DNA of 32,000 nucleotides, taken from assembly GCF_033126985.1 (NCBI RefSeq), contig NZ_AP024714.1, positions 1,472,990 through 1,504,989 on the forward strand. Reading direction: 5' to 3'. The DNA comes from Methylomarinovum caldicuralii. GTDB lineage: Bacteria; Pseudomonadota; Gammaproteobacteria; Methylococcales; Methylothermaceae. Shown piece after piece: positions 1 through 28,848 of the stretch. The notes beneath the pieces are model-generated. The model did no database searches, had not been told where the DNA came from, and was given only the letters and a program-made list of their open reading frames with translations. The first letter of the stretch is position 1. Every line of letters begins with the position of its first letter. Both the position numbers and the translations under genes were made by a program.

Positions 1-1191
1 GCGGCGCTGCGGCAGGTGGAACAGGCCCTGGAGGAGGCCGACCTGATTCTTTTCCTGGTCGATGCCCGCGAGGGGCTGACCGCCGCCGACGAGGACATCG
101 CTGCGCGATTGCGCCGCCTGGACAAGCCGGTACTGTTGGTCATCAACAAGATCGACGGCGAGGATCCGGCCCTGGCGGCGGCGGAGTTTTCCGTGCTGGG
201 ATTTGCGGAGCCGGTGATGATCGCCGCCGCCCATGGCCGCGGCACCGCCAAACTGCTGGCGCGTATCGAGGCGCTGCTGCCGCCGGCGCCGCAGAGCGCC
301 ACCGAAGCGGACAGGGACGACGCCATCCGGGTTGCGGTCATCGGCCGTCCCAACGTCGGCAAATCGACGCTGGTCAACCGCCTGCTGGGAGAGGAGCGGG
401 TGGTGGTGGCCGACCATCCCGGCACCACCCGCGACGCCATCGAAATCCCCTTCGAGCGCGACGGCCGCGCCTTCGTGCTGATCGACACCGCCGGCATCCG
501 CCGCCGGGCGCGGGTGGAGGAGGCGGTGGAGAAGTTCAGCGTCATCAAGGCGATCCAGGCGATGGAGCAGGCCGACGTGGTCGTGTTCCTGATCGACGCC
601 TCCGAGGGCATCACCGACCAGGACGCGCGCCTGCTCGGGATGGTGCTCGAAGCCGGCAAAGCCCTGATCATCGGCCTCAATAAATGGGACGGGCTTTCCC
701 GGGAGCAGAAGCAGAAGGTTCGCGGCCAGCTGGAAACCCGGCTGCAGTTCGTCGATTTCGCCGAAAAACTGCCGATCTCCGCCCTGCACGGTACCGGGGT
801 GGGGGACCTGTTCGATCGGATCGCGCCGCTTTACGAACAGGCCCAGGTTGAATTCGGCACCTCCGAACTGACCCGGATCCTGCAGGACGCGGTCATATCC
901 TATCCACCGCCGCTGGTGCGCGGGCGGCGCATCAAGCTCAAGTTCGCCCACCAGGGCGGCAAGAAGCCGCCGCTGATCGTCATCCACGGTAACCAGACCG
1001 AGCGGGTGCCGGCCAGCTACCGGCGTTATCTCAACCGCAGTTTCCGCGAGGCGCTGGGGATCAAAGGGACGCCGCTGCAACTGGAATTCCGTTCCAGCGC
1101 CAATCCTTTCGCCGGCCGCCGCAACAAGCTCACCCCCAGGCAGCTGCGCAAACGCCAGCGGCTCCTGCGTCACGCCAAGAAGGGGCGTTAG
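1..1191 (+). CDS. der: Ribosome-associated GTPase Der/EngA (5' end cut by the window edge)
   Basis: Frame is open from base 1; the track start at 16 is an internal GTG. Contains the end of GTPase domain 1 (NKIDG). Contains a complete GTPase domain 2 ([17 protein letters not shown]), then a KH-like C-terminal domain and a basic tail. Stop TAG at 1189-1191. Confidence 0.9.
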
Positions 1192-2786
1192 CGGCGATAG
1201 ATCCGAGCCAGCAAATCGTCCTCTCCGGCGGCTTCCGGGGTGGCGGAGGCTTGGCGCAATAGCGCGAGCTGCGTTTGTCCCTGTTGCCGCAGTGCCTCCA
1301 GCTCCGCTTCCAGATCCTGCAATTGGGATACGACCTCGGCCTCGATTTGCTCGAATCCCCGGTAAATGCCGGCACGAATGCCGCTTTCGGCCACCTTCTC
1401 CAGGGAAGGTTCGAGCAGGCGGTGGAGTAGAAAGGGAATCAGACAGGCCAGGCCAATGAGCAACAGGCTGTGGACGGCGAAATTGAGTCCCAGATATTCG
1501 CCTTCCCCGGTAAAGCCGCGGTAGTACCTTGCGACCACCTGCCAGGCGACCCAGCCTCCGGCGGCCAATGGCAGGAGGTAACGCAGCGCGGCGGTGAGCC
1601 ACAGCAGTCCCCGGCGCAGGCTGTGGCCGGGACGGGCCAGGGCGGCACGGACCGTGCGCTGGACCTGGTCGATCAGGATGCGGTCGAGACGTTTCCTGAC
1701 AGGCTCCAGACGCTGTTTCAGGGACGCGGCGGGCAGACCCCGTTCTCCGGCTTCCAGCACCAGCCGGTCCAGCGCGTCCTGCAGGTGCTTCTGACTCCAC
1801 AGATCCCAAAGCAGCGTCTCGCCGGAATTTCCCTGCCCGGATTTGAGCCGTTTCTGGCCCTTGCCGGCGATTTCCCGGGCCAGGGCCTTGGTGGGCCATT
1901 CCAGGGAAGGCGCCAGCGCGTCACAGGTCTGACGCCAAAGCCGTTGCCATTGTTTCACCAAGGGTGCGACGCTTTCGGGATCGAGTTTCCGCACCAGCCG
2001 CTCAATGCGGTCGGCCAGTTCCTGCATCCTTTGGCTGCGGTTGCGCTGTTGCAGGTGCTCGGCGCCGCCGTTTCTGGCCAGCCGGGTGAGGATTTCCTCC
2101 AGTTTGCCGAAGTCGTCCGGGCGGCGCCGGCTGAGGTCTTCACGGCTGTCGCAACGCAGCACCACAGGCGCCTTGAAGCCTGCCTGCCGCAACATCCGGG
2201 TGAAATCCTCGATCTGGGCCTCGTGTCCCTGGTCCCAGTGGTTCATGACGAACAGCCAGCCGTGTCGGTGACCGAAGCGTTGCAGCATCTGCCAGCCGGT
2301 ATCGTCCTTGTAGCGTTCCGGGCTGACCACGTAGATCAGGACGTCCACGTGGGGCAGGCACTGGAGCACCAGTTCACGGTTGCTTTCCTCGACGCTGTCG
2401 ATGTCGGGCATGTCGATCCAGACCACGTCGCGGCGGTTGGGATTCGCGTGGCGGGCCAGGCGCAGGTGCGCCAGGGGCAGCTGGTGTTCGAGGGCTTCAG
2501 TGGGCAGGGACCGGTGCAGATAGACCGTGACCTCCCGCGATGTCGGCCGCTCGATGCCGGTGCGGGCGACCGCTTCCCCCGCCAGGCGGTTGAGCAGGGT
2601 GCTTTTGCCCACGCCCGTGCCGCCGAAGAAGGCGACGATCAGCGGGGGATGCTCCACCTCGAACAAGGGGCCGCCGTCATCGCGGGCGGCGGAAAGATAC
2701 CGCTCCGCTTCTTCAGGGGTGATGAAGCCTGCGGCGGCAAGATGCTGGAACCACTGGGAGAGACGCTCAAAAGAGACGGAGTCCAT
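1188..2786 (-). CDS. Membrane-anchored P-loop GTPase of unknown function, paralogue of the upstream gene (dynamin-like architecture)
   Basis: 532 aa. G1 GGTGVGKST (nt 2598-2624), G3-like DMPD in WIDMPDIDS (nt 2403-2414), G4-like NHWD. Long helical region. Two hydrophobic helices near the C-terminus ([25 protein letters not shown] and [19 protein letters not shown]), then a coiled-coil-like tail. ATG 2786 is preceded by AGGAA and overlaps the upstream gene by 20 nt. I cannot assign a characterised family from memory. Confidence 0.6.
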
Positions 2787-4494
2787 AACGGCGTTCCTGC
2801 AGCTGTTGATCGACGGCGGTCAGGGTCTCGGCATCGAAGCCGAAGCGGTAGGCAGGGTCGATGGCCCCGGGCAGTTGGCGCAGGCGCTGGCCGAGCCGCG
2901 CTGCAAGCATGTTTTGGACCGCCTCCAGTTGTTGTTGTTTGAGGCGGGCGGCGACCCGCTCCATGTATTTTCCCAGGGCGGTTTCCGACAGCCACGAGGT
3001 CAGCGACAGGACCGCCGGGGCCAGGAAAAAATCGTGCGGTCCGATGCCGCCGGTCTGGAGCAGCAGGGCCAGTCCGGCAGCATCGGCGCTGAGCCGGGTG
3101 GCGCGCAATGCATTGAGGGTGACCGGCATTTCCTTGAGTTTTTCGTAGAGTTCCCGGGCGGCCGCTTCCACCTGGGGCTGAAATTCCCGGTAATAACGGC
3201 CGGCATCCTGTTGGAAGGCATCGAGCGTATCCGCCATGGTTTCCTGATAGTGCCGGGACAGGGACTGCCACCACGGCTGGGCCAGTTCGGAGGGCGGGGG
3301 TTCGGCCAACACCTGTTGCAACCGGCGCAGGGCGTGCTCGACGCTGTGGATCAGCACCCGCAGTTCCTCAGGGATGGCCTGGTCGTGTTTGCCCTTTCCC
3401 AGCAACTTGCGCAGCGGCCAGGTCAAGGTCCGCCGCATCCACAGCATCGGCTTGCCGATGCCGGGAAGTTCCAGCAGGATCAGCAGTTCCGCCAGCGCCC
3501 GCTGGAAGGTTTCGTAGGCGATCGGATGGTCGAGGAAGTCGTGGCGGTAGATTTCGATGGCCTGGACCAGCGCTGCCTCGACCTGCCTGCGCCAGGCTTT
3601 ATCTGCGGCGATTTCCGCCTCCAGCGGCTGCCGCCAGGCGGGCCAGTAGCGGCGGGCCAGTTCGAGGATCCGCCTGTCGCGCTGGCGGCGCTGGCGTTGG
3701 GCGAGCGGCAGGCGCTCGAGCAAAGCGGCCCGCACCTGGGCCCCGGCCTGGCGGCGTCCTTCCTCATCCTGCCAGTAGGGCAGTGGGATCACCGGTGGCG
3801 GTGGGTCTGCGCGGTGGCCGCGCCATTTCTCGTTCCAGGATCGCAGCAGGGTGTCGCGCCCCTTCGGAGTGACCTTGTTGAGGCAGACCAGGACCGGCTG
3901 CCCGAGGGGTTCGAGCAGGGTGAGCATGTCCCACACCGCCCGGTCGGCGTACTTGTCCTTGCTCACCACCACGAGCAGGAGATCGGCCAGTGCGGCGGTG
4001 CGCAGAACCCCATGCAGATAATGGCGGGCCCGCAGGGAATCGAAGTCCGGCGTGTCCCACAGGGTCAGGGCGGGAAGTTCCGGGTGGCCTGAGACCGGTT
4101 CGACGGCAAAGTGCGTGTAGCGGTCCGCAGGCAATTGTTCCCGCGGCAGGCGCCGGTAACCTTCGAAGTAGGCATCCAGCCAGTCGGCAGGTTCCGCCCG
4201 GTGGGCGAATCCCTGGGGGTGCACGGTGTAGCCGGCCAGGGGGCTGACGCCGGCCGCCTCGGTGTCGAGGATCAGGTTGACGATGCTGCTCTTGCCCGCC
4301 TGGGTCGGGCCAACGACGGCGACCTGCAGGGTGTGGTCGGGCGGCAGTTCGGTCTTGGCCAGGGCGGCCCGGGTCAGCTCCAGGGACGGTTCCAGCTCTG
4401 TCAGGTGCCTTGCCAGCGGGGATTCGGCAGGCAGGTGCGCCTGCAGGGCGCGGCTTTGCTGCCGGTACCGGTCGAGAAAGGCTTTCAGTTCCAA
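2767..4494 (-). CDS. P-loop GTPase of unknown function, paralogue of the downstream gene (dynamin-like architecture, no clear TM helix)
   Basis: 575 aa. G1 GPTQAGKSS (nt 4288-4311), G3-like DTPD in LWDTPDFDS (nt 4045-4056), G4-like NKVT. Shares with the next gene the block W-x-D-x-P-D-x-DS ... VVS-x(3)-Y-x-D-x(2)-W-x-ML. Long helical C-terminal two thirds with one hydrophobic or amphipathic stretch (GLALLLQTGGIGPHDFFLAPAVLSLTSWL). The only in-frame start before the P-loop is TTG at 4494, 2 nt after the upstream stop, with no obvious SD, so the start is uncertain. Confidence 0.55.
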   Translation of the reverse strand: MELKAFLDRYRQQSRALQAHLPAESPLARHLTELEPSLELTRAALAKTELPPDHTLQVAVVGPTQAGKSSIVNLILDTEAAGVSPLAGYTVHPQGFAHRAEPADWLDAYFEGYRRLPREQLPADRYTHFAVEPVSGHPELPALTLWDTPDFDSLRARHYLHGVLRTAALADLLLVVVSKDKYADRAVWDMLTLLEPLGQPVLVCLNKVTPKGRDTLLRSWNEKWRGHRADPPPPVIPLPYWQDEEGRRQAGAQVRAALLERLPLAQRQRRQRDRRILELARRYWPAWRQPLEAEIAADKAWRRQVEAALVQAIEIYRHDFLDHPIAYETFQRALAELLILLELPGIGKPMLWMRRTLTWPLRKLLGKGKHDQAIPEELRVLIHSVEHALRRLQQVLAEPPPSELAQPWWQSLSRHYQETMADTLDAFQQDAGRYYREFQPQVEAAARELYEKLKEMPVTLNALRATRLSADAAGLALLLQTGGIGPHDFFLAPAVLSLTSWLSETALGKYMERVAARLKQQQLEAVQNMLAARLGQRLRQLPGAIDPAYRFGFDAETLTAVDQQLQERRYGLRLF

Positions 4495-4496
4495 AA

Positions 4497-5183
4497 TTAC
4501 GGTTTCGGTAGTTCTTTGGGTTCTTCCAGGGTGCGGATGAAGCGGTCCGCCTGCTGGATGGACTGTTCCATGACCTGGATCATCGCCGCGATGTCGACGC
4601 TGACGTGGTTCAGTTCATGCTGCAGGGCGGCGATGGCCCGGGCGTTGAGGTTGTGCTTGAGAAACAGAACCTGGTCTCGGAAGGCGTTGAGGACCGGGTC
4701 GATGCGGCTTTCCGCCTTGCGCATGGCGCCGATGAGCTGTTTGTAGTGGCGCTGGGTCAGCCTCAGCTTCTGACGGCTCTTGCTGCGCAGGCTGCGGTTG
4801 GTGTAAAGCGCCAGCTCGTCCTCCCATTCGGAGAACAGGGATTCGGCCAGGGATTCAATGGTGTCGATGTGGTTTCTGACTTCCTCGGCCTTCTGTTCGC
4901 TGTGGTCGAATTCCCGCTTGAGGGCGCGGTAGTAGCTGGCGAGGCTGCCGCCGTCGTAGGCGATCAGGGCGCTGAAGCGTTCCAGGGTGGTCTGGAGCTG
5001 TTCCTTGGTTTCCTCCAGGCCAGTGCGGGCATCCTCCACCCGGGCGACGAGGAAATCGCGCTTGTGGGAGCCGGTGGTCGATTCCGCCATCCGGTAATAG
5101 GCCTGGCGGATCCGCCCCAGCACGAACCGCCCCAGGCGTTGGGACAGGGTGCGGCGGCGCTCCGCACGGACAGGGAGTTTCAT
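4497..5183 (-). CDS. DUF2959-family all-helical protein
   Basis: 228 aa. The blocks AYYRMAES..HKRDFLVARVEDAR, LFSEWEDELALYTNRSLRSKSRQKL, MRKAESRIDPVLNAFRDQVLFLKHNLNA match my recollection of the gammaproteobacterial DUF2959 family. The N-terminus is basic, with no hydrophobic signal or lipobox. The stop TAA (4497-4499) is 2 nt from the next gene start. Confidence 0.6.
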   Translation of the reverse strand: MKLPVRAERRRTLSQRLGRFVLGRIRQAYYRMAESTTGSHKRDFLVARVEDARTGLEETKEQLQTTLERFSALIAYDGGSLASYYRALKREFDHSEQKAEEVRNHIDTIESLAESLFSEWEDELALYTNRSLRSKSRQKLRLTQRHYKQLIGAMRKAESRIDPVLNAFRDQVLFLKHNLNARAIAALQHELNHVSVDIAAMIQVMEQSIQQADRFIRTLEEPKELPKP

Positions 5184-10217: not shown

Positions 10218-10921
10218 CCGACCAGCCGGGCCAGGGCGTCGCGGTCGAGAATCCGGACCCGTTTGCCGTCGAGCTCGATCCAGCCCTCCCGTTCGAACTG
10301 CTTGAGGGTGCGGCTGACCGTGGCCAGGGCCAGATCCAGGTGGTTTCCCAGTTCCTGGCGGGTCAGGCCGATGGAGAACTCCTCCCCGGAAAAACCGCGG
10401 AAGGCATAACGGCGGGACAGGTCGAGTAGAAAGGCGGCCAGGCGCTCCTCGGCCGGTTTCTTGATGAAGACGGTCTGGTCGCGCTGGCTGGCGAGGGCGT
10501 CGCTGGCGTGGCGCAACATTTCCCCGAGCATTGTCGGGATGCGGAAACAGATGCGGGAGATTTCCTTGGCCGGCAGCTCGCAATAGCTGACCGTGTCCAG
10601 CGCCTGGGCGGAACAGCGGTAGCGGTTGTCCGCCAGGGCATCGAAGCCGACCACTTCCCCGGGAAGCAGCACCTGGAGGATGTGTTCCTCGCCTTGGTCG
10701 TCCTGATAGATCAGCTTGGCGGTGCCGGATTTGATGGCGATCAGGCCGTGGAAAGGATCGGCGGCGCGGAACAGGAATTCTCCCTTCCGCAATGCCTTGC
10801 GGCGCTCGACCACATCTTCAAGCTGACTGACTTCCTCGCGGGTCAGCCCCCGGGGGAAGCATACGGTTCTGAAACCGCAATTGTGACAAGTGACTTGCAG
10901 TTTTTTGTGCAAAGTCGTCAT
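10214..10921 (-). CDS. fnr: FNR-type [4Fe-4S] oxygen-sensing Crp/Fnr family transcription regulator
   Basis: N-terminal C-x2-C-x5-C (C12, C15, C21) plus C114, with the same 93-residue spacing as E. coli FNR C29 to C122. cNMP-like beta-roll. C-terminal HTH LTRQELGNHLDLALATVSRTL. Ala replaces the conserved Glu of the E--SR recognition motif. Confidence 0.85.
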   Translation of the reverse strand: MTTLHKKLQVTCHNCGFRTVCFPRGLTREEVSQLEDVVERRKALRKGEFLFRAADPFHGLIAIKSGTAKLIYQDDQGEEHILQVLLPGEVVGFDALADNRYRCSAQALDTVSYCELPAKEISRICFRIPTMLGEMLRHASDALASQRDQTVFIKKPAEERLAAFLLDLSRRYAFRGFSGEEFSIGLTRQELGNHLDLALATVSRTLKQFEREGWIELDGKRVRILDRDALARLVG

Positions 10922-11051
10922 GTATCCGAGCCAGGAACGTTTCCGGGTAATGATACACGACCTGAGCGCTCAGGAAATGCTTGAAAATCGTTCGTTTCTG
11001 TCACAATATCAATCTTATACCGTTATTTTTACTATCAACTCTAAACACAAA

Positions 11052-11894
11052 ATGAACTTAAACCAAGCAGAAGAGAACCTCATTCACAGGTTTCAAGCGC
11101 TGCGGGAAGCGATCCAGGATTTCGTCGTCCAGCTGAATCAGGAAAGCCGCAGGGCCTGGGTCTTCGATCTAGCGCATCGCGAATACCACGATGCGGAGGC
11201 CAGAAGCCAATTGATCCAGATCCTGACGCGGCTGGAATATCCGGACAACCGCGATGGCCGGGAAACCGATCCCTGTCCCGGCATCATCGGGGCAGGGCCC
11301 AGGACGCTGGCGCTGGCCGGCGCCCTCAATCAGGCCCGGGATGCCTTCAAGCAGGCGGTGCTCGCGATCAACAGTCATGACAGGGAACGGTCCCGGCGCC
11401 TGATGGCCGCCCAGGGCTTTGCCCGCCTGCATTTCAAACAGCTGTACCGTCATCAGCCGATTCTGCTGCGCAAACCCTGTTCCATCCGCTTTACCTGGGG
11501 AGCGACACGCTCGATCAAGCGTATCAGCCGCCAGGAGGCCTACCGCAGGCTGACGGCGCTGGCCGGCGACGATCCATCGCCCGGTTACCTGAGACAGCTG
11601 GAGCTTCTGGCCCAGCATCCCAAGGATGAACCCATCGCCATCGTGCAGGACCTAAAACCGCATATCAAGGCCAACGTCTGCTGGATTCAGGGAAGCGGCC
11701 AGGATCGTCAGGTCATCCGCAAAATGATCAGCGCGCCGTTGGCGATTCTGATCCCGCTGGACCCGGGTGAGGACTTGCCGCAGCATAGCGCCGCCTATCC
11801 GGAGGCGCGCAAACCGAGAAAGCCGCGCGCCGATACCAGGATCGAGCGGGAGCTGTTTTTACCGTCGATCCGGGGTCACCGTTACTGCCGGTAA
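11052..11894 (+). CDS. tus: Tus-family DNA replication terminus site-binding protein homologue
   Basis: 280 aa from MNLNQ. Hand alignment to E. coli Tus (recalled) is collinear end to end. [22 protein letters not shown] aligns with RLNTTFRQMEQELAIFAAHLEQ. PGIIG aligns with [29 protein letters not shown] aligns with [53 protein letters not shown] aligns with [36 protein letters not shown] aligns with LIIPRLHLYV. The track start at 10890 would overlap fnr and adds non-homologous residues. No SD is seen before 11052. Confidence 0.7.
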   Translation: [280 protein letters not shown]

Positions 11895-11901
11895 TACTCT
11901 A

Positions 11902-11929
11902 ACTTTACATAATATACATTATGCGAACA
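11902..11929 (-). other. dif: dif, the XerC/XerD chromosome dimer resolution site
   Basis: The minus strand reads TGTTCGCATAA-TGTATA-TTATGTAAAGT against E. coli dif GGTGCGCATAA-TGTATA-TTATGTTAAAT, 24/28 identical. The central hexamer is 6/6 and each arm is 9/11. It is intergenic and is the only such site in the window. KOPS polarity converges on it. Confidence 0.85.
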
Positions 11930-12016: not shown

Positions 12017-12721
12017 ATGACCCAGTCACTGCAGGCGCTGAAAACCCACAGGGACACCGAGGACCGCCAGGCTTTCAACGAAGTCCTGCGGCAGTTTCTG
12101 CCACAGCTCAGGCCCTATGTCGCCGCCCGCCTCCGGTACGCCGAACACGCGGGCCTGATTCCCCCGCGAATGTACTTTCCCAGTGACATCGTGGACGAGA
12201 TCTATCTGGAAGTGTTCGAGCATTTCAGCGATGCCGATCTCGATCCCAAAAAACTCAAGATCAGGCTGTTCAAGCTGGCCGACGCCAAACTGGAAAAAAT
12301 CCTCAAGGAAGAAGCCCGGTGGCAGGAACGCAAGGTTCCCATCGAGGACATCGTCCGGGAGGAACTGAAATCGCTGGAGGAAATCTTCTACCCGGAGGAA
12401 ATGCTCGACGACATCGAGTACCGCCAGGACGAATACCGCCCCAAACTTCTGTTGCTGGAAGAAGGCTTCGAGGGCGACCTGCTGGACTTCCTCGAGCTGG
12501 ACCGCAGCCTGCGCCAAGAGGCCAGGAACCGCCAATTGCTCGCCCGGGCTTACGAGAGTCTGCCGCCGTTGAGCCGGATCATCCTGGAGCTGAAAGTCAA
12601 CGGCAACCTGACGGTGGAAGAGATCGCCGATGTCCGGGAGATGGATGTGGAGGAAGTCGAGGCGGGTCTGGAGGCGGTGAAAAGGCGTTTCCGCCAGGCT
12701 TTGGGGCAGGAAGCCGCTTAG
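12017..12721 (+). CDS. Sigma-70 family (ECF-like) RNA polymerase sigma factor with a long acidic sigma2-sigma4 linker
   Basis: AAGGAG about 10 nt upstream of the ATG. Region-2-like segment AFNEVLRQFLPQLRPYVAARL...DIVDEIYLEVFEHF. Region-4-like HTH LPPLSRIILELKVNGNLTVEEIADVREMDVEEVEAGLEAVKRRFRQAL. An acidic linker of about 65 aa lies between them. No anti-sigma candidate is adjacent. Confidence 0.65.
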   Translation: MTQSLQALKTHRDTEDRQAFNEVLRQFLPQLRPYVAARLRYAEHAGLIPPRMYFPSDIVDEIYLEVFEHFSDADLDPKKLKIRLFKLADAKLEKILKEEARWQERKVPIEDIVREELKSLEEIFYPEEMLDDIEYRQDEYRPKLLLLEEGFEGDLLDFLELDRSLRQEARNRQLLARAYESLPPLSRIILELKVNGNLTVEEIADVREMDVEEVEAGLEAVKRRFRQALGQEAA

Positions 12722-19107: not shown

Positions 19108-20298
19108 TCAAGGGTTCAGCCCCCGCTCCAGGTCGGCGATGATGTCCTCGATGTTCTCCAGCCCGACGGAGATCCGCACCAGCCCGTCGTCGATGCCGGC
19201 CTCGTTGCGTTCCTCCGGCGAAAGGCGGCCGTGGGTGGTGGTGGCCGGGTGGGTGATGGTCGTCTTCACGTCCCCCAGGTTGGCGGTGATCGAGATCAGG
19301 CGGGTATTGTCGATGACCCGCCAGGCCGCCGGCTGGCCGCCTTTAACCACGAAGCTGACAATTCCCCCGCCCCCCCGCTGCTGTTTTGCGGCCAGATCGT
19401 GCTGGGGATGGGAGGCCAGCCCGGGATAGTAGACCCGTTCCACCCGCGGATGGGTTTCGAGCCAGCGGGCCAGCTTCAGGGCATTGTCGCAGTGGGCCTG
19501 CATGCGCAGATTCAGGGTTTCCAGGCCGGTGAGGAAGACCCAGGCGTTGAAGGGGCTCATGGCGGCGCCTCCGGTGCGCAGAAAGGGGTAGACCTCCTTG
19601 TCCAGCAGCTCCCGGGGGCCGACGATGGCGCCCCCGACGCAGCGGCCCTGGCCGTCCAGATATTTGGTGGCCGAATGGACCACGATGTCGGCGCCCAAAG
19701 CCAGGGGGTGTTGCAGGGCCGGGGTACAGAAGACGTTGTCCACTACCAGCAGGGCGTCGTGGGCGTGGGCCAGCGCCGCCAGCGCGGCGATGTCGGCGAT
19801 CTCGGTCAGGGGATTGGAAGGCGTCTCCAGGAACAGAAAGCGGGTCTGGGGGCGGATGGCCTGTTCCCAGGCGTCCAGGTCGGTCAAAGCGACGAAATCG
19901 ACACCGACCCCGAATTTCGCCATATAGTTTCGAAACAGCAGCACGGTGTTGCCGAACACCGCCCGGGAGCAGACCACATGATCACCCGCCTTCAAAAGCC
20001 CCATCGCCAAGGTCATGATCGCCGCCATCCCGGAGGCGGTGGCGATGCAGCGCTCCCCGCCCTCCATGATCGCCAGGCGTTCCTCGAAGGTCCGCGTGGT
20101 CGGATTGGTGAAGCGGGAATAGATGTTGCCAGGCTCCTGGCCGGAAAAGCGCGCCTGGGCCTGGGCAGCGCTGTCGAAGACATAGCTGGAGGTGACGAAG
20201 ATCGGGTCGGAATGCTCGTTTTCCGGCGTTCGGTGCTGGCCGGCCCGGATGCTTTGGGTCTGGATGCCGAAACGGTCCCAGGACAGATCGTTGCTCAT
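19108..20298 (-). CDS. metZ: O-succinylhomoserine sulfhydrylase (PLP-dependent Cys/Met metabolism family)
   Basis: PLP-lysine motif [13 protein letters not shown] and N-terminal TQSIRAG. ATG 20298 forms an ATGA overlap with the purF stop. purF-metZ linkage is the usual arrangement. The track start at 20424 adds 42 non-homologous residues inside purF. Confidence 0.8.
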
Positions 20299-21797
20299 AC
20301 CGAATTGTGCAGGTCGAGGTTGTTGGTGTTGGATTCTTCCGCTTGCGGGCCGCGGCGGCAGAAACTGAGGCGCTCCAGGTATTCCGGGGTGATGTCCCCG
20401 GTAACGTATTCGCCGCTGAAGCAACTGGTTTCGAAACGCTCGATGGCCGGGTTGCAGCGCCGCACCGCCTCCACCAGATCGTCGAGATCCTGATAGATCA
20501 GCCAGTCGGCCCCGAGGAAATGCTGGATTTCTTCCTCACTGCAGCCGTGGGCGATCAGCTCCGAGGTGGCCGGCATGTCGATGCCGTAGACATAAGGGTA
20601 ACGGACCGGCGGGGAGGCGGAGGCAAAATAGACCTTGCTGGCGCCGGCGTCGCGGGCCAGTTGGATGATCTGTTTGGAGGTGGTGCCGCGGACGATGGAA
20701 TCGTCCACCAGCAGCACGTTCCTGCCCTTGAATTCCACGTCGATGGGATTGAGCTTGCGGCGCACCGATTTCTGGCGCAGCTGCTGTCCGGGCATGATGA
20801 AAGTGCGGCCGATATAGCGGTTCTTGATGAACCCTTCACGGTACTTCACCCCCAGGCGGTTGGCCAGCTCCAGCGCTGCGGTGCGGCTGGTGTCCGGGAT
20901 GGGAATGACCACGTCGATGTCATGATCCGGACGCAGGCGCAGAATCTTCTCCGCCAGTTTCTCCCCCATGCGCAGCCGGGCCTGATAGACCGAGATGCTG
21001 TCGATGACCGAATCGGGACGGGCGAAATAGACGAACTCGAAGATGCAGGGCGCGTGCAGGGTGCGCTCAGCACACTGGCGGCTGTGAAGACGGCCGTTCT
21101 TTTCGATGAAGACCGCCTCCCCGGGGGCGATGTCCCGCAGCCGTTTGAAACCGAGTACATCGAGAGCGACGCTTTCGGAAGCGATGATGTATTCCGGCCC
21201 CTGGGGCGAATCGCGGCGGCCGATCACGGCCGGTCGGATTCCGTAAGGATCCCGGAATCCCAGCACCCCGAAACCGGTGATCATCGCGGTCACCGCATAA
21301 GCCCCCCGGCAGCGGCGATGGACTTCGGCCACGGCATCGAAAACGTCGCTGACGTCGAGACGCAGTTTTCCCAGACGCTGCAGTTCATGGGCGAAGACAT
21401 TGAGAAGGATTTCGGAATCCGAATCGGTGTTGATGTGGCGCTGGTCCTGCAGGAACAGCTCCTGTTTCAGGAGCTCGGCGTTGGTCAGATTGCCGTTGTG
21501 GCCCAGGGCGATGCCATAGGGGGAATTGACGTAGAAGGGTTGGGCTTCGGCTGAACTGGTACAACCGGCGGTGGGATAGCGGACGTGGCCGATCCCCATC
21601 GTGCCGCGCAGGTGTTGCATGTGCTCCGGCTGAAACACGTCGCGCACCAATCCCTTGTCCTTGCGCAGATAGAAACGGCCACCCTCGTAGGTGACGATGC
21701 CGGCGGCGTCCTGACCGCGGTGCTGCAGCATCGTCAGGGCTTCGTAGAGTTCCTGATTGACCGGCTGATGGGAAACGATGCCTACGATTCCACACAT
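20295..21797 (-). CDS. purF: Amidophosphoribosyltransferase
   Basis: Ntn-type N-terminus [12 protein letters not shown]-binding loop [13 protein letters not shown]. Start set at ATG 21797, so that Cys is residue 2. The track start at 21968 is an upstream extension into cvpA. Confidence 0.95.
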
Positions 21798-22392: not shown

Positions 22393-23400
22393 ATGGAAAC
22401 CCTGTCCACGGCACTCCCGGCGCGCTTCGTCGAGCGGCTGCAGGCCATCATCCCGCCCGCCCGGCTGGCGGAAGTGCTCGCCAGTTTCGGTCGGCCCAAG
22501 ATCCCTGTCCTGCGGGTGAACACCTTGCGATCCTCCGTCCTGGAAACCTTCACCGAATTGCAGACTCAGGGGTTTCCGCTCGATCCCCTTCCCCAACTGG
22601 AATACGCCGCCAGCCTGCCGCCGGAATGGAAACGCCCGCTGACGGAGACGTCGGCGTTTGCGGAGGGACGGATCTACCTTCAGAACCCCTCCAGCATGCT
22701 CGCGGTGGAGATGCTGGTGCCCCAGCCCGGCGAGGAGGTGCTCGATCTGTGCGCTGCCCCCGGCGGCAAGACTTCCCTGCTGGCGATGAAAATGGGAAAC
22801 CGGGGCCGGATCGCGGCAGTGGAGCCGGTCAAGGACCGTTTCTACCGGCTTAAAGCCAATCTGGCCCGCCTGGGCGTGACCGTTGCCCGCGGTTACCGCA
22901 TGGACGGCCGCGCCGTCGGCCGCAAGGTGCCCGAACGTTTTGACCGCGTGCTGGTGGACGCCCCCTGCTCGTCCGAGTCCCGCTTTCGCAGCGAAGATCC
23001 CCAAAGCCACGCCCACTGGCATGAGCGCAAGATCGCCGAATGTTCCCGCAAGCAGAAACGGTTGTTGCTGTCGGCCTTTCAGGCATTGAAGCCGGGCGGC
23101 CGCCTGCTCTACTGCACCTGTGCCTTCGCCCCCGAAGAGAACGAAATGGTGGTGGACGCCCTGTTGCGGCGGCATCCGGAGGCGGAGATCGTCCCCTTGC
23201 AACTTCCCGGGGTGGCGCAGCAGCCGGGGCTGACCCGGTGGCAGGGAAAAACCCTGGCTGCATCCCTTGAGGGCGCCCTCAGGATTCTTCCGGACCAGGT
23301 TTACGACGGCTTTTTTCTGTGTCTGGTGACGAAGGGCCGTGGCGTTGGTGCCAAAGCCGGTCCAGTTCGGAAAGGCGCTGCAGTTTGGCCGCGATCTTGA
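22393..23400 (+). CDS. RsmB/RsmF/NOP-family SAM-dependent RNA (cytosine-C5) methyltransferase
   Basis: SAM-binding motif [10 protein letters not shown]. Catalytic motifs DAPCS and TCA(F)xPEENE. The conserved part ends near GFFLCLVTK, and the frame then runs 21 more codons to TGA 23398-23400, overlapping the rarA 3' end. Confidence 0.8.
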
Positions 23401-24658
23401 TTTCCAGGCCGCGCTCGACCGGCTGGTAATAGCGACGCGGTTCCATCTCCTCGGGAAAATAGTTTTCCCCGGCGGCATACCCTTCCGGTTCGTCATGGGC
23501 ATAGCGGTAGCGGCGGCCGTAGCCCAGCTCCCGCATGAGCCGGGTCGGGGCGTTGCGCAGATGCACCGGCACCTCCAGGCTGCCGGTGGCGGCGGCATCC
23601 CGTTGCGCCGCCTGAAAGGCGCGATAGACGGCATTGCTTTTCGGTGCGCAGGCCAGATAGACCGCCGCCTGGGCCAGGGCCAGCTCCCCTTCCGGCGACC
23701 CCAGCCGCTCCTGGGCGTCCCAGGCATCGAGCGCCAGGCGCAATGCCCGCGGGTCGGCGTTGCCGATGTCCTCGCTGGCGATACGCACCAGGCGGCGGGC
23801 GATGTAGAGCGGATCGCAACCACCATCCAGCATGCGGCAGAGCCAGTACAGGGCTGCGTCGGGATCGCTGCCGCGGATGGTCTTGTGCAGGGCGGAGATC
23901 TGATCGTAGAAGGCGTCCCCCTGGCGGTCGAAACGGCGCGGGCTGCCGCCGGCCAGAACATCCCGGGCGACCGCTTCGGAGATGTGGACGACGCCGCCTG
24001 CCTCCTCGCCCAGATCGACGAGCACTTCCAGCAGATTCAACAGGCGGCGGGCATCGCCGTCGGCGGCCTGGATCAGCCAGGGGCGCACCGCGGCCGGCAG
24101 CCTGATCTCCCGGCCGCCGAAACCGCACGGATCGGTCAGGGCGCGGTCGATGACCTGTTCCAGGTCGGTTTCCCCGAGCGGTTTGAGTACATAGACCCTG
24201 GCCCGGGACAACAGGGCGTTGTTGAGGGCGAAGGAGGGATTTTCCGTGGTCGCCCCGATGAAGCAGATCAGCCCGGTTTCGATATGGGGAAGAAAGGCGT
24301 CCTGCTGGGCTTTGTTGAAACGGTGCACCTCGTCGACGAAGAGGATGGTTCGGCGCCCCTGTTCCCGGATCGCCTCTGCCTGTTGGATGGCTTGGCGGAT
24401 GTTTTGGATATTGGATAAAACAGCAGATAACGGTATAAATTCGGCGTCCGCCGTCGCCGCCACCATCCGCGCCAGCGTCGTCTTGCCGGTCCCCGGCGGC
24501 CCCCAGAGAATCATCGAGTGCAGATGTCCGGCCCGAACCGCCTCATAGAGAGGCTTGCCCGGCGCCAGCAGGTGGTGCTGGCCGAAGAACTCCTCCAGGC
24601 GCTGGGGCCGCAGGCGGTCGGCCAGCGGCCGGGAATCGGCGCTGTTTTCCAACTTCAC
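23279..24658 (-). CDS. rarA: Replication-associated recombination protein A (AAA+ ATPase RarA/MgsA)
   Basis: Walker [10 protein letters not shown], Walker [11 protein letters not shown], and MgsA C-terminal domain ([25 protein letters not shown]). The GTG start at 24658 overlaps the lolA stop (GTGA). Confidence 0.95.
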
Positions 24659-25272
24659 GTGCCTTCGAAGACATCCACGCCGGGCGGCGGAGAGAAGCGG
24701 AACAGCTCAGGATCGAGGCGGGGATTGATCTCCAGCCGATGGAAGCGGATCCGGGTCAGCTGCCCGAAATTGTCCGCCAGTTCCATCGCCTGCAAAACGT
24801 CCCGTTGCAGTTCAACCCGCAAACGGCGGAAGACGTCGTTCTTGGATTTGGGACGCAGCTCCACCCAGGCCCGCCCGCCTTCGCTTCCCTGCCCTGCCAC
24901 CCGGAAACGCTCCTGCAGGCGGACCTGACCGCTGAGCAGCAGCGCCGGCGCCGATCCCAGCGCCTCGTCGAGCGGGCGCACGGTCACCTGTTCCAGATCA
25001 GGATCGTAGAACCAGACCTTGCTGCCGTCGGCGATCACCCATTGCCGGTACGGCTTGCGGTATTCCCAGCGGAACCTGCCCGGCCGCGCCAGATAGAAGC
25101 GCCCTTCGCTGCGCTGGCTGACGTTTCCGTGTTCGTCGATGACTTCCTGCTCGAAATCGGCAGCCAGGGTCTTGACCCGGGAAAGGAAGCCATCGAGCGC
25201 GTCCACGGGCGCGGCGGTGGCTGCGGCTGCCCACCACAACAGGAAAATCACTGGAAAGAAAGACAATTGCAT
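24655..25272 (-). CDS. lolA: Outer-membrane lipoprotein carrier protein LolA
   Basis: Signal peptide [22 protein letters not shown]. LolA-like length (205 aa) and conserved ftsK-lolA-rarA synteny. ATG 25272 lies 4 nt after the ftsK stop. The track start at 25494 lies inside ftsK. Confidence 0.85.
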
Positions 25273-25276
25273 GCGC

Positions 25277-28848
<3,572 letters not shown>

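Follow-up and report, generated by a model that had tools for sequence, protein, structure and literature searches.

The stretch of DNA considered here (hereafter, the window) comprises 32,000 nucleotides from the genome of Methylomarinovum caldicuralii (family Methylothermaceae; contig NZ_AP024714.1, positions 1,472,990 to 1,504,989 of the forward strand). It contains a gene for an apparent remote relative of Tus, the terminator protein of Escherichia coli, located next to a dif site and accompanied by two inverted copies of a short motif, which we consider to be candidate Ter sites. An open reading frame found at 10890-11894 on the plus strand contains the tus-like gene (11052..11894, +), whose 280-amino-acid product is assigned to a divergent Tus family by PF05472, a PDB profile match, hhalign, Foldseek and its homologues. 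The start codon of this gene (ATG at 11052) is backed by an alignment of 22 homologues, and the stop codon TAA occupies positions 11892-11894. Starting 7 bp past this stop codon, there is a XerC/XerD recombination site, dif (ACTTTACATAATATACATTATGCGAACA, 11902..11929, -), which is identical in 24 of 28 positions to the reverse complement of E. coli dif; its XerD arm adjoins the stop codon, and its orientation is reversed with respect to the conventional E. coli one. An earlier sequence-only reading of the window had given the same coordinates and the same 7-bp distance, and had also supposed a non-enterobacterial host. Both statements were correct: the tus-like protein is a 100% match to a hypothetical protein of M. 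caldicuralii, and the guanine and cytosine (GC) content of the window is 60-66%.

The same reading had proposed membership in the Tus family on the basis of a collinear alignment, naming a profile search and a structure comparison as checks, and the evidence obtained from both bears it out. PF05472 (Ter) was the sole family found in a Pfam search; its gathering threshold of 22 is marginally exceeded by the tus-like product (25.2 bits, E 1e-5), with the match covering residues 91-169 only. A precomputed PF05472 match is present in all 25 close homologues. A search of the PDB with a profile made from 23 homologues retrieved the Tus chains 1ecr and 4xr0 as the only meaningful matches (E ~1e-3, residues 24-241). 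Such a profile was required, since phmmer with the single sequence against the PDB found no Tus and returned noise only. An hhalign comparison of a 66-member family alignment with E. coli Tus gave 90.5% probability over 236 collinear columns. The DNA-contacting beta-strand of E. coli Tus (R169-F-G-W-A173-N) has its counterpart in IRFTWGA of the window protein and FTWANT of the wider family, both aligned to LRFGWAN, so that the alignment of the RF-W strand region, already read from the letters, holds (RFTWGA opposite RFGWAN). Finally, an AlphaFold2 model of the protein (predicted local distance difference test score 81.4, predicted template modelling score 0.73) was compared with the PDB using Foldseek. 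The top four matches were all Tus (E 7e-14 to 8e-13, template modelling score 0.50-0.55, ~280 aligned columns, 17-18% identity), while the next match had E 0.2. With this predicted model, we consider the assignment of the Tus fold secure.

At the same time, the scores of the Tus equivalog models in NCBIfam stayed below their cut-offs (12.6 bits vs. 178.3 for TIGR02648 and 27.7 vs. 323 for NF002810). Judging by its sequence, the protein is best placed in a remote Tus subfamily and is not an orthologue-level, equivalog Tus. All 25 word-index matches came from Methylothermaceae, with 57-100% identity including the self-match and 57-93% otherwise. An exhaustive profile search extended the family to 741 clusters (at 50% identity) with E<=1e-3 and 396 with E<=1e-10, most of them full-length at 25-37% identity. 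The conserved blocks of the family are RLHLKQCYR, FTWANTRSIKKI, LAIVQxLAPHLRANL and RSDxKIExEPFLPSIRxHRY, and its named members come from Neptunomonas, Sinobacterium, Pokkaliibacter, Balneatrix and Natronocella. With tblastn, relatives were found on plasmids of Halomonas, Pseudomonas, Vibrio, Thioalkalivibrio and Aeromonas, and none among phages. Since E. coli Tus itself scores only ~21 bits against the homologue profile, the family appears to form a separate and large branch. The Tus homology as such is not new, because automated annotation (UniRef and some records of the Prokaryotic Genome Annotation Pipeline) has already given several family members the name terminus site-binding protein.

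For the comparison of genomic contexts, ten Methylothermaceae loci were retrieved from a genome collection (loci are given below as L with a number). A dif-like site is found downstream of tus, in the same orientation, in all ten, and in eight of them only about 3-130 bp separate it from the end of tus. The other two loci, from metagenome-assembled genomes of Methylohalobius, carry an insertion of 2.8-3.7 kb between tus and dif (L005, 10877-13618; L010, ~780-4520). The insert of L005 (2.8 kb) turned out to be a single gene for a 913-amino-acid subtilisin-like (S8) protein; a Xer-integrated element had been considered here, and no second dif-like site was sought. Thus, the tight linkage between tus and dif noted by the sequence-only reading is conserved within this clade. 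It fails beyond it, with dif near tus in 0 of 52 wider-family loci, so that the adjacency is a Methylothermaceae-specific feature.

Genes around tus follow a preserved order in this family: ABC (ATP-binding cassette) transporter, fnr, tus, dif, (sigma-like), dao, (gnd), ..., manC, ..., purF, cvpA, (rarA), lolA, ftsK. Galli et al. proposed a conserved context and a clade-congruent distribution as criteria for a "resident" tus (PMC6549158), and on gene order and distribution the Methylothermaceae tus is resident in their sense. The GC skew is positive to the left of the tus-vicinal candidate Ter site in six of seven loci, negative to the right of the distal candidate site in seven of seven, and mixed between the two sites, which are both described below; it cannot locate the switch point more finely than the interval between these sites. 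Such a change of sign is consistent with a replication terminus.

Several observations concern the immediate surroundings of dif and the right end of this syntenic block. Right after dif, at 12017-12721 (+), there is a 234-amino-acid open reading frame, whose product weakly resembles extracytoplasmic function sigma factors (21 bits for Sigma70_r4_2 and 29.5 bits for TIGR02999, both under the cut-off). It was found only in the window, L001 and L009, so the gene content at this flank of dif is variable. Directly outside the distal Ter-like site lie lolA and ftsK (24655-27763, -), the latter 13-16 kb from dif and encoding the DNA translocase responsible for the activation of XerCD at this site; the order ftsK-lolA-rarA is kept in related genomes.

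Alignment of the DNA upstream of tus revealed an invariant string, TTATRCCGTTA (window positions 11015-11025), which is present in nine of the nine related loci where upstream DNA was available, 25-60 nt before the ATG. In the window, this tus-vicinal candidate Ter site spans 11012..11029 (+), and its core 12-mer TTATACCGTTAT occupies 11015-11026, separated by 25 nt from the ATG of tus. The candidate sequence may also be written as AATTTATACCGTTATCT and, for the purposes of scanning, as AATTTATRCCGTTAT. Over 20 non-redundant sites, the core reads aATTTAT(A/G)CCGTTA(T/A)(c)(t) and is non-palindromic. Exact matches to the 12-mer number two in the window vs. 0.00 expected from shuffles, and allowing <=2 mismatches added no further copy. 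In 268 kb of Methylothermaceae DNA, every match with <=1 mismatch falls within the site classes described here. Turning to E. coli-like Ter sites, a search of the window with ATGTTGTAACTA allowing <=3 mismatches gave six matches vs. 3.3 expected by chance, none of them near tus, and the core of the E. coli-type Ter consensus (GTTGTAAC) had no match in the window better than chance. The sequence-only reading had noticed this absence, rightly, and had called the cognate Ter sites unknown. That assessment remains valid insofar as nothing E. coli-like is present, and is superseded by a candidate site upstream of tus and an inverted one beyond dif.

The position of the vicinal site and its overlap with -10-like TAnnnT strings are the reasons to think that it probably overlaps the tus promoter; a scan for sigma-70 promoters recovered no consensus promoter upstream of tus. 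Other short sequences were also found upstream of tus. In L009, a degenerate copy of the motif, TTATACCCATAT, is located at 2372-2383 (+), preceding the vicinal site by 62 bp, and could be either a second weak site or a chance occurrence. A second conserved motif, (T/A)AATGATACACGA, was found between fnr and tus at 10948-10960 (+) of the window as well as in L001, L002, L004, L007 and L008, being absent from L003, L005, L006 and L009. Its minus-strand reading, TGTATCATT, bears a loose likeness to a fragment of the XerC arm and central region of dif and may be an extended -10 element for fnr.

The distal candidate Ter site, an exact inverted copy of the same 12-mer, lies at 24427..24438 (-), inside rarA/mgsA (23279..24658, -), the gene for the AAA+ replication-associated recombination protein A (P0183, a 100% match; Pfam MgsA_C, AAA_assoc_2 and AAA). 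There, the site codes for E-F-I-P-L-S as GAA TTT ATA CCG TTA TCT, a choice of rare codons made against the backdrop of a host genome with 65% GC. In the genes of the window, ATA and TTA each account for 1.0% of the codons for their amino acid (Ile and Leu, respectively), TCT for 2.7% of Ser codons and TTT for 18% of Phe codons; under this usage, the probability of the codon choice for FIPL alone is ~8.5e-6. The 45-mer around the site is the lowest-GC stretch of rarA (31% vs. a mean of 66%). Four other Methylothermaceae genomes have the site in their rarA, namely L007, L016 (M. tepidoasis), L017 and L018 (Methylohalobius crimeensis), and in a fifth, L019, it shows one mismatch. In the outgroups, the corresponding peptide is specified by GC-rich codons lacking the motif: TTC CTG CCC CTG in rarA of Methylococcus sp. 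EFPC2 and TTC ATC ACC CTC in that of Methylogaea oryzae. In the metagenome-assembled genome L003, rarA is missing between cvpA and lolA, and the remaining spacer retains CTATACCGTTAT in the same orientation (20120-20131, -). Given the rare codons, the motif-free rarA of the outgroups and the retention of the motif in L003 after the loss of rarA, the distal site is selected as DNA and is not a by-product of the RarA sequence. Such selection answers a caveat that was raised for the intragenic Ter sites of E. coli (PMC10331603).

The orientation of the copies is strictly ordered with respect to dif. To the left of it, all copies lie on the plus strand (the ten vicinal sites plus one more copy, 9.8 kb further out, in L004), and to the right, all lie on the minus strand (those in rarA, that of L003 and an extra intergenic copy in M. 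crimeensis L018, 9.9 kb further out). In other words, written as TTATACCGTTAT, all Methylothermaceae copies point to dif. The distance between the two sites is 13.4 kb in the window, compared with 10.4 and 10.2 kb in L007 and L003, respectively. In the window, the vicinal site is ~0.9 kb from dif, with no motif copy in between, and the distal one is located ~12.5 kb beyond it. By sequence geometry, rarA and tus are each transcribed through their own site in the direction that we model below as permissive.

Copies of the motif also follow tus outside of Methylothermaceae. Here, the 66-sequence alignment (A2) proved too heterogeneous to search for loci; with its subset A3, 48 metagenomic loci were obtained. 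In L013, where the protein is 37% identical and the context is formed by tmk, gyrB and gyrA, two exact 12-mers are found in convergent orientation immediately upstream of tus, 94 bp apart (372-383, +, and 477-488, -). L015, the locus of a Sinobacterium caligoides protein with 34% identity and again an unrelated gene context, has one exact 12-mer beside tus. In L054 (9739, +, and 10886, -) and L046 (2842, +, and 4110, -), tus lies between two convergent copies of the variants TTATACCATTAT and TTATACCATCAT, and in L053 a single variant of this type is found upstream of it. About 0.015 such matches would be expected by chance in the wider-family flanks, according to a back-of-envelope estimate. 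All four lineages with two sites show the same convergent geometry, the paired copies of L013, L046 and L054 being 94 bp-1.3 kb apart. Because the two sites of L054 match each other in 23 of 25 positions over AATAACwTTATACCATTATCAwTTT, the sequence suggests a full site of ~25 bp, i.e., the size of E. coli Ter. Since the motif follows tus across unrelated gene contexts, its distribution also argues that the partner of the motif is the Tus-like protein and not some neighbour such as Fnr. No coherent alternative motif emerged from a k-mer enrichment analysis of the upstream regions of 50 wider-family loci; the string CAGGGAAA was positionally inconsistent and was discarded.

Plasmid-borne relatives deserve a separate comment. 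On a plasmid of Halomonas sp. I5-271120 (L071, 4676-6708), a tus-like gene starts 36 bp after a gene for a site-specific integrase, and on another Halomonas plasmid (L070) it follows a gene for a 343-amino-acid "DNA-binding protein", upstream of which there is a near-palindrome, TGTAATACGTATATTACA (~4870-4890). Such arrangements hint at a linked module for termination and multimer resolution. No motif copy was found in these Halomonas plasmid relatives.

We consider established the Tus homology and fold and the dif site, as well as how conserved, specific and oriented the motif is, that its rarA copy is under selection at the DNA level and that the GC skew is terminus-like. Taken together, these findings probably describe a compact fork trap at dif, built from a diverged member of the Tus family and two inverted candidate Ter sites. 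A minimal or differently organised termination module had been suggested by the sequence-only reading, and the two candidate sites now allow such a module to be drawn concretely. We infer binding of the motif by the protein, its polarity, fork arrest and autoregulation, which would work as follows. The Tus-like protein would bind, probably as a monomer, an asymmetric site with a conserved core of 15-17 bp, aATTTATRCCGTTAT(c)(t). Binding to the site in its own promoter region would probably autoregulate tus, as TerB does for E. coli tus. The inverted sites would bracket tus and dif within a 13.4 kb interval at the replication terminus, and each protein-DNA complex, by analogy with Tus-Ter, would admit a fork into this interval and block its exit. 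Forks would then meet within ~13 kb of dif, and their fusion would be confined to an interval of 10-13 kb. The permissive direction should be 5'->3' along TTATACCGTTAT, the blocking face being the GTTATct end, because the interval must be replicable and the opposite polarity would shut out both forks. This modelled polarity is consistent with the transcription of rarA and tus through their sites in the permissive direction.

Several observations weigh against a fork trap. The cytosine-lock pocket of E. coli Tus is said to have been described by Mulcair et al. in 2006 as consisting of I79, F140, H144 and G149. Opposite F140, H144 and G149, non-identical residues stand in both the hhalign and the MAFFT alignments, and I79 is aligned by hhalign with a conserved aromatic residue; since this segment is aligned unreliably and the three residues have no recognisable counterpart in either alignment, a Tus-type "lock" is unproven. 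The motif and E. coli Ter agree, by eye, in only 6-9 of ~15 positions in either orientation, and for this reason we rejected the alignment of the motif with TerB as proof of DNA homology or polarity. The distal site is not indispensable: in L006, which also lacks rarA, the corresponding spacer (20393-20477) holds only a decayed CTATCTTGCCCGTTGG. In L015, the exact 12-mer, located 15 nt ahead of the ATG, lies on the opposite strand and thus has a reversed orientation with respect to tus. Approximately 45 of 50 wider-family loci have no recognisable motif copy, and Ter sequences have probably diverged elsewhere in the family. Within the putative trap itself, tus is located inside, and the blocked direction relative to tus is opposite to that of TerB and tus in E. 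coli. Finally, the number and orientation of the sites in M. caldicuralii refer to 32 kb of its genome.

It is tempting to go one step further and suppose, though only tentatively, that the original unit was a self-contained, transferable "Ter-tus-Ter" cassette, which was captured at dif, with one Ter displaced 10-13 kb into rarA. This would be the narrowest chromosomal trap known, with fork fusion taking place at the dimer-resolution site, and the family would represent a second large Tus-Ter branch with its own recognition code and, possibly, a non-C(6) lock. What looks like a compact form of this cassette is seen in L013, L046 and L054, and the family includes at least 741 clusters (at 50% identity) from Methylococcales, Oceanospirillales, Cellvibrionales, Chromatiales and megaplasmids.

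Other explanations might also be put forward. One could think of the Tus-fold protein as an autorepressor or transcription factor only, having no role in replication, in which case the vicinal motif would be its operator and the rarA copy a second operator or a roadblock. This would agree with the best-conserved site always adjoining the start codon of the gene itself, with the apparent lack of conservation in the lock pocket, with the loss of the distal site in L006 and with most loci of the wider family having a tus-proximal site only, or none. An autoregulator, however, would need neither a family-conserved site in rarA codons of ~1% usage nor the preservation of this site as intergenic DNA once rarA was lost. 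The rule that sites point to dif, the extra copies of the same orientation ~10 kb out in L004 and L018, and the terminus marked by dif and GC skew would likewise have no regulatory rationale, and we therefore regard a purely regulatory role as unlikely.

Alternatively, the protein and its sites might aid chromosome-dimer resolution or segregation of the terminus at dif, e.g., by positioning XerCD and FtsK or delimiting the terminus domain, with no fork arrest involved. The 3-130 bp between tus and dif in eight of ten relatives, the location of ftsK 13-16 kb away, just beyond the distal site, and the Halomonas plasmid member encoded immediately after a site-specific integrase gene speak in favour of such a role. 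Nevertheless, we find it quite improbable: at ~0.9 kb and ~12.5 kb from dif, the sites are too distant to serve a recombination synapse as accessory sequences, insertions of 2.8-3.7 kb between tus and dif are tolerated in two genomes, and none of the 52 wider-family loci has dif nearby. Moreover, polar fork arrest is the sole characterised activity of this fold (PMC8707476, PMC10331603).

Least probable of all, the inverted 12-mers might be what is left, now without function, of inverted repeats that once bounded a mobile tus-like cassette, as could be imagined from the two inverted copies tightly flanking the gene in L054 and L046 (23/25 identical in L054), from the relatives on plasmids and from the frequent mobility ascribed to tus genes (PMC6549158), but in Methylothermaceae 10-13 kb of syntenic housekeeping genes lie between the copies, one copy is kept against codon bias in an essential-type gene while the Tus proteins are 57-82% identical, no transposase is associated with the locus, and decaying relics would not remain exact. 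Each of these explanations covers a part of the data; none covers the rarA site, the orientation towards dif and the location at the terminus together.

The proposed trap has much in common with the Tus-Ter system of E. coli (1ECR/2I05/4XR0; TerA-J). The fold is the same, the proteins align collinearly, including the RFxWAN DNA-contact strand, an asymmetric non-palindromic site precedes the tus ATG (TerB ends 11 nt before that of E. coli), and oppositely oriented sites are found on either side of dif. At the same time, the proteins are only ~18% identical, the protein does not reach the cut-offs of the Tus equivalog models, the Ter sequence is unrelated and the lock pocket is not recognisable in the alignments. 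While E. coli tus lies outside its trap, ~94 kb from dif, here tus is located inside and abuts dif, and the trap spans 13 kb, with two sites seen vs. 6-10. The plasmids R6K and R1 carry two close inverted Ter sites of the E. coli type and depend on the Tus of their host. These pairs resemble the convergent ones found 94 bp-1.3 kb apart in L013, L046 and L054, except that the cassettes described here bring their own tus-like gene and a different motif.

Closer in size are the type I, or "ancestral", traps of Edwardsiella tarda and Dickeya paradisiaca described by Toft et al. in 2021 (PMC8707476). Their Tus is canonical (46-59% identity with that of E. coli), their Ter sites share 74-83% identity with TerB, and tus lies outside the trap (PMC8707476); at 18 kb in Dickeya and 56 kb in Edwardsiella, they are the narrowest traps described in the papers searched (PMC8707476). 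Likewise, the trap proposed here would be narrow, with very few Ter sites, dif and the GC-skew switch inside, and a tus-vicinal Ter that is the innermost one of its cluster. It differs in the order Ter - tus - dif, which puts tus inside, whereas tus lies outside in both type I and type II (PMC8707476), as well as in its width of 10-13 kb, its new Ter consensus and the location of dif 7 bp from the tus stop codon. As regards RTP-Ter of Bacillus subtilis, a polar fork trap with autoregulation via a Ter in its own promoter (PMC10331603), the analogy is functional only, since the fold is unrelated and no Pfam match to RTP was found here.

In the papers searched, a resident tus is listed only for Enterobacterales, chromosome 2 of Pseudoalteromonas and Aeromonadales (PMC6549158, PMC10331603), in agreement with the view of the sequence-only reading that Tus/Ter traps have been characterised only in Enterobacterales and a few related gammaproteobacterial lineages and plasmids. 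Our literature search found nothing combining Tus or a fork trap with Methylococcales, and PF05472 cited only by Galli et al. The novel elements, then, are the candidate Ter site, a compact layout that is fused to dif and encloses tus, and how large the divergent branch is.

The significance of these findings hinges on experimental confirmation of binding and polar arrest. Overall, they point to a resident, syntenic and highly divergent Tus branch in another order of Gammaproteobacteria, provided with a Ter candidate that can be tested. A two-site, 13-kb architecture containing dif touches upon what fork traps are for and upon the link between termination and dimer resolution, the two being physically fused at this locus. 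In addition, the protein and its motif may offer an orthogonal protein-DNA pair for replication-barrier tools, which are now based on E. coli Tus-Ter. Since the Tus proteins of this family score near the Pfam threshold and their Ter sequence differs, our results also suggest that fork traps may have been overlooked in many Gammaproteobacteria that are thought to be "fork-trap-less".

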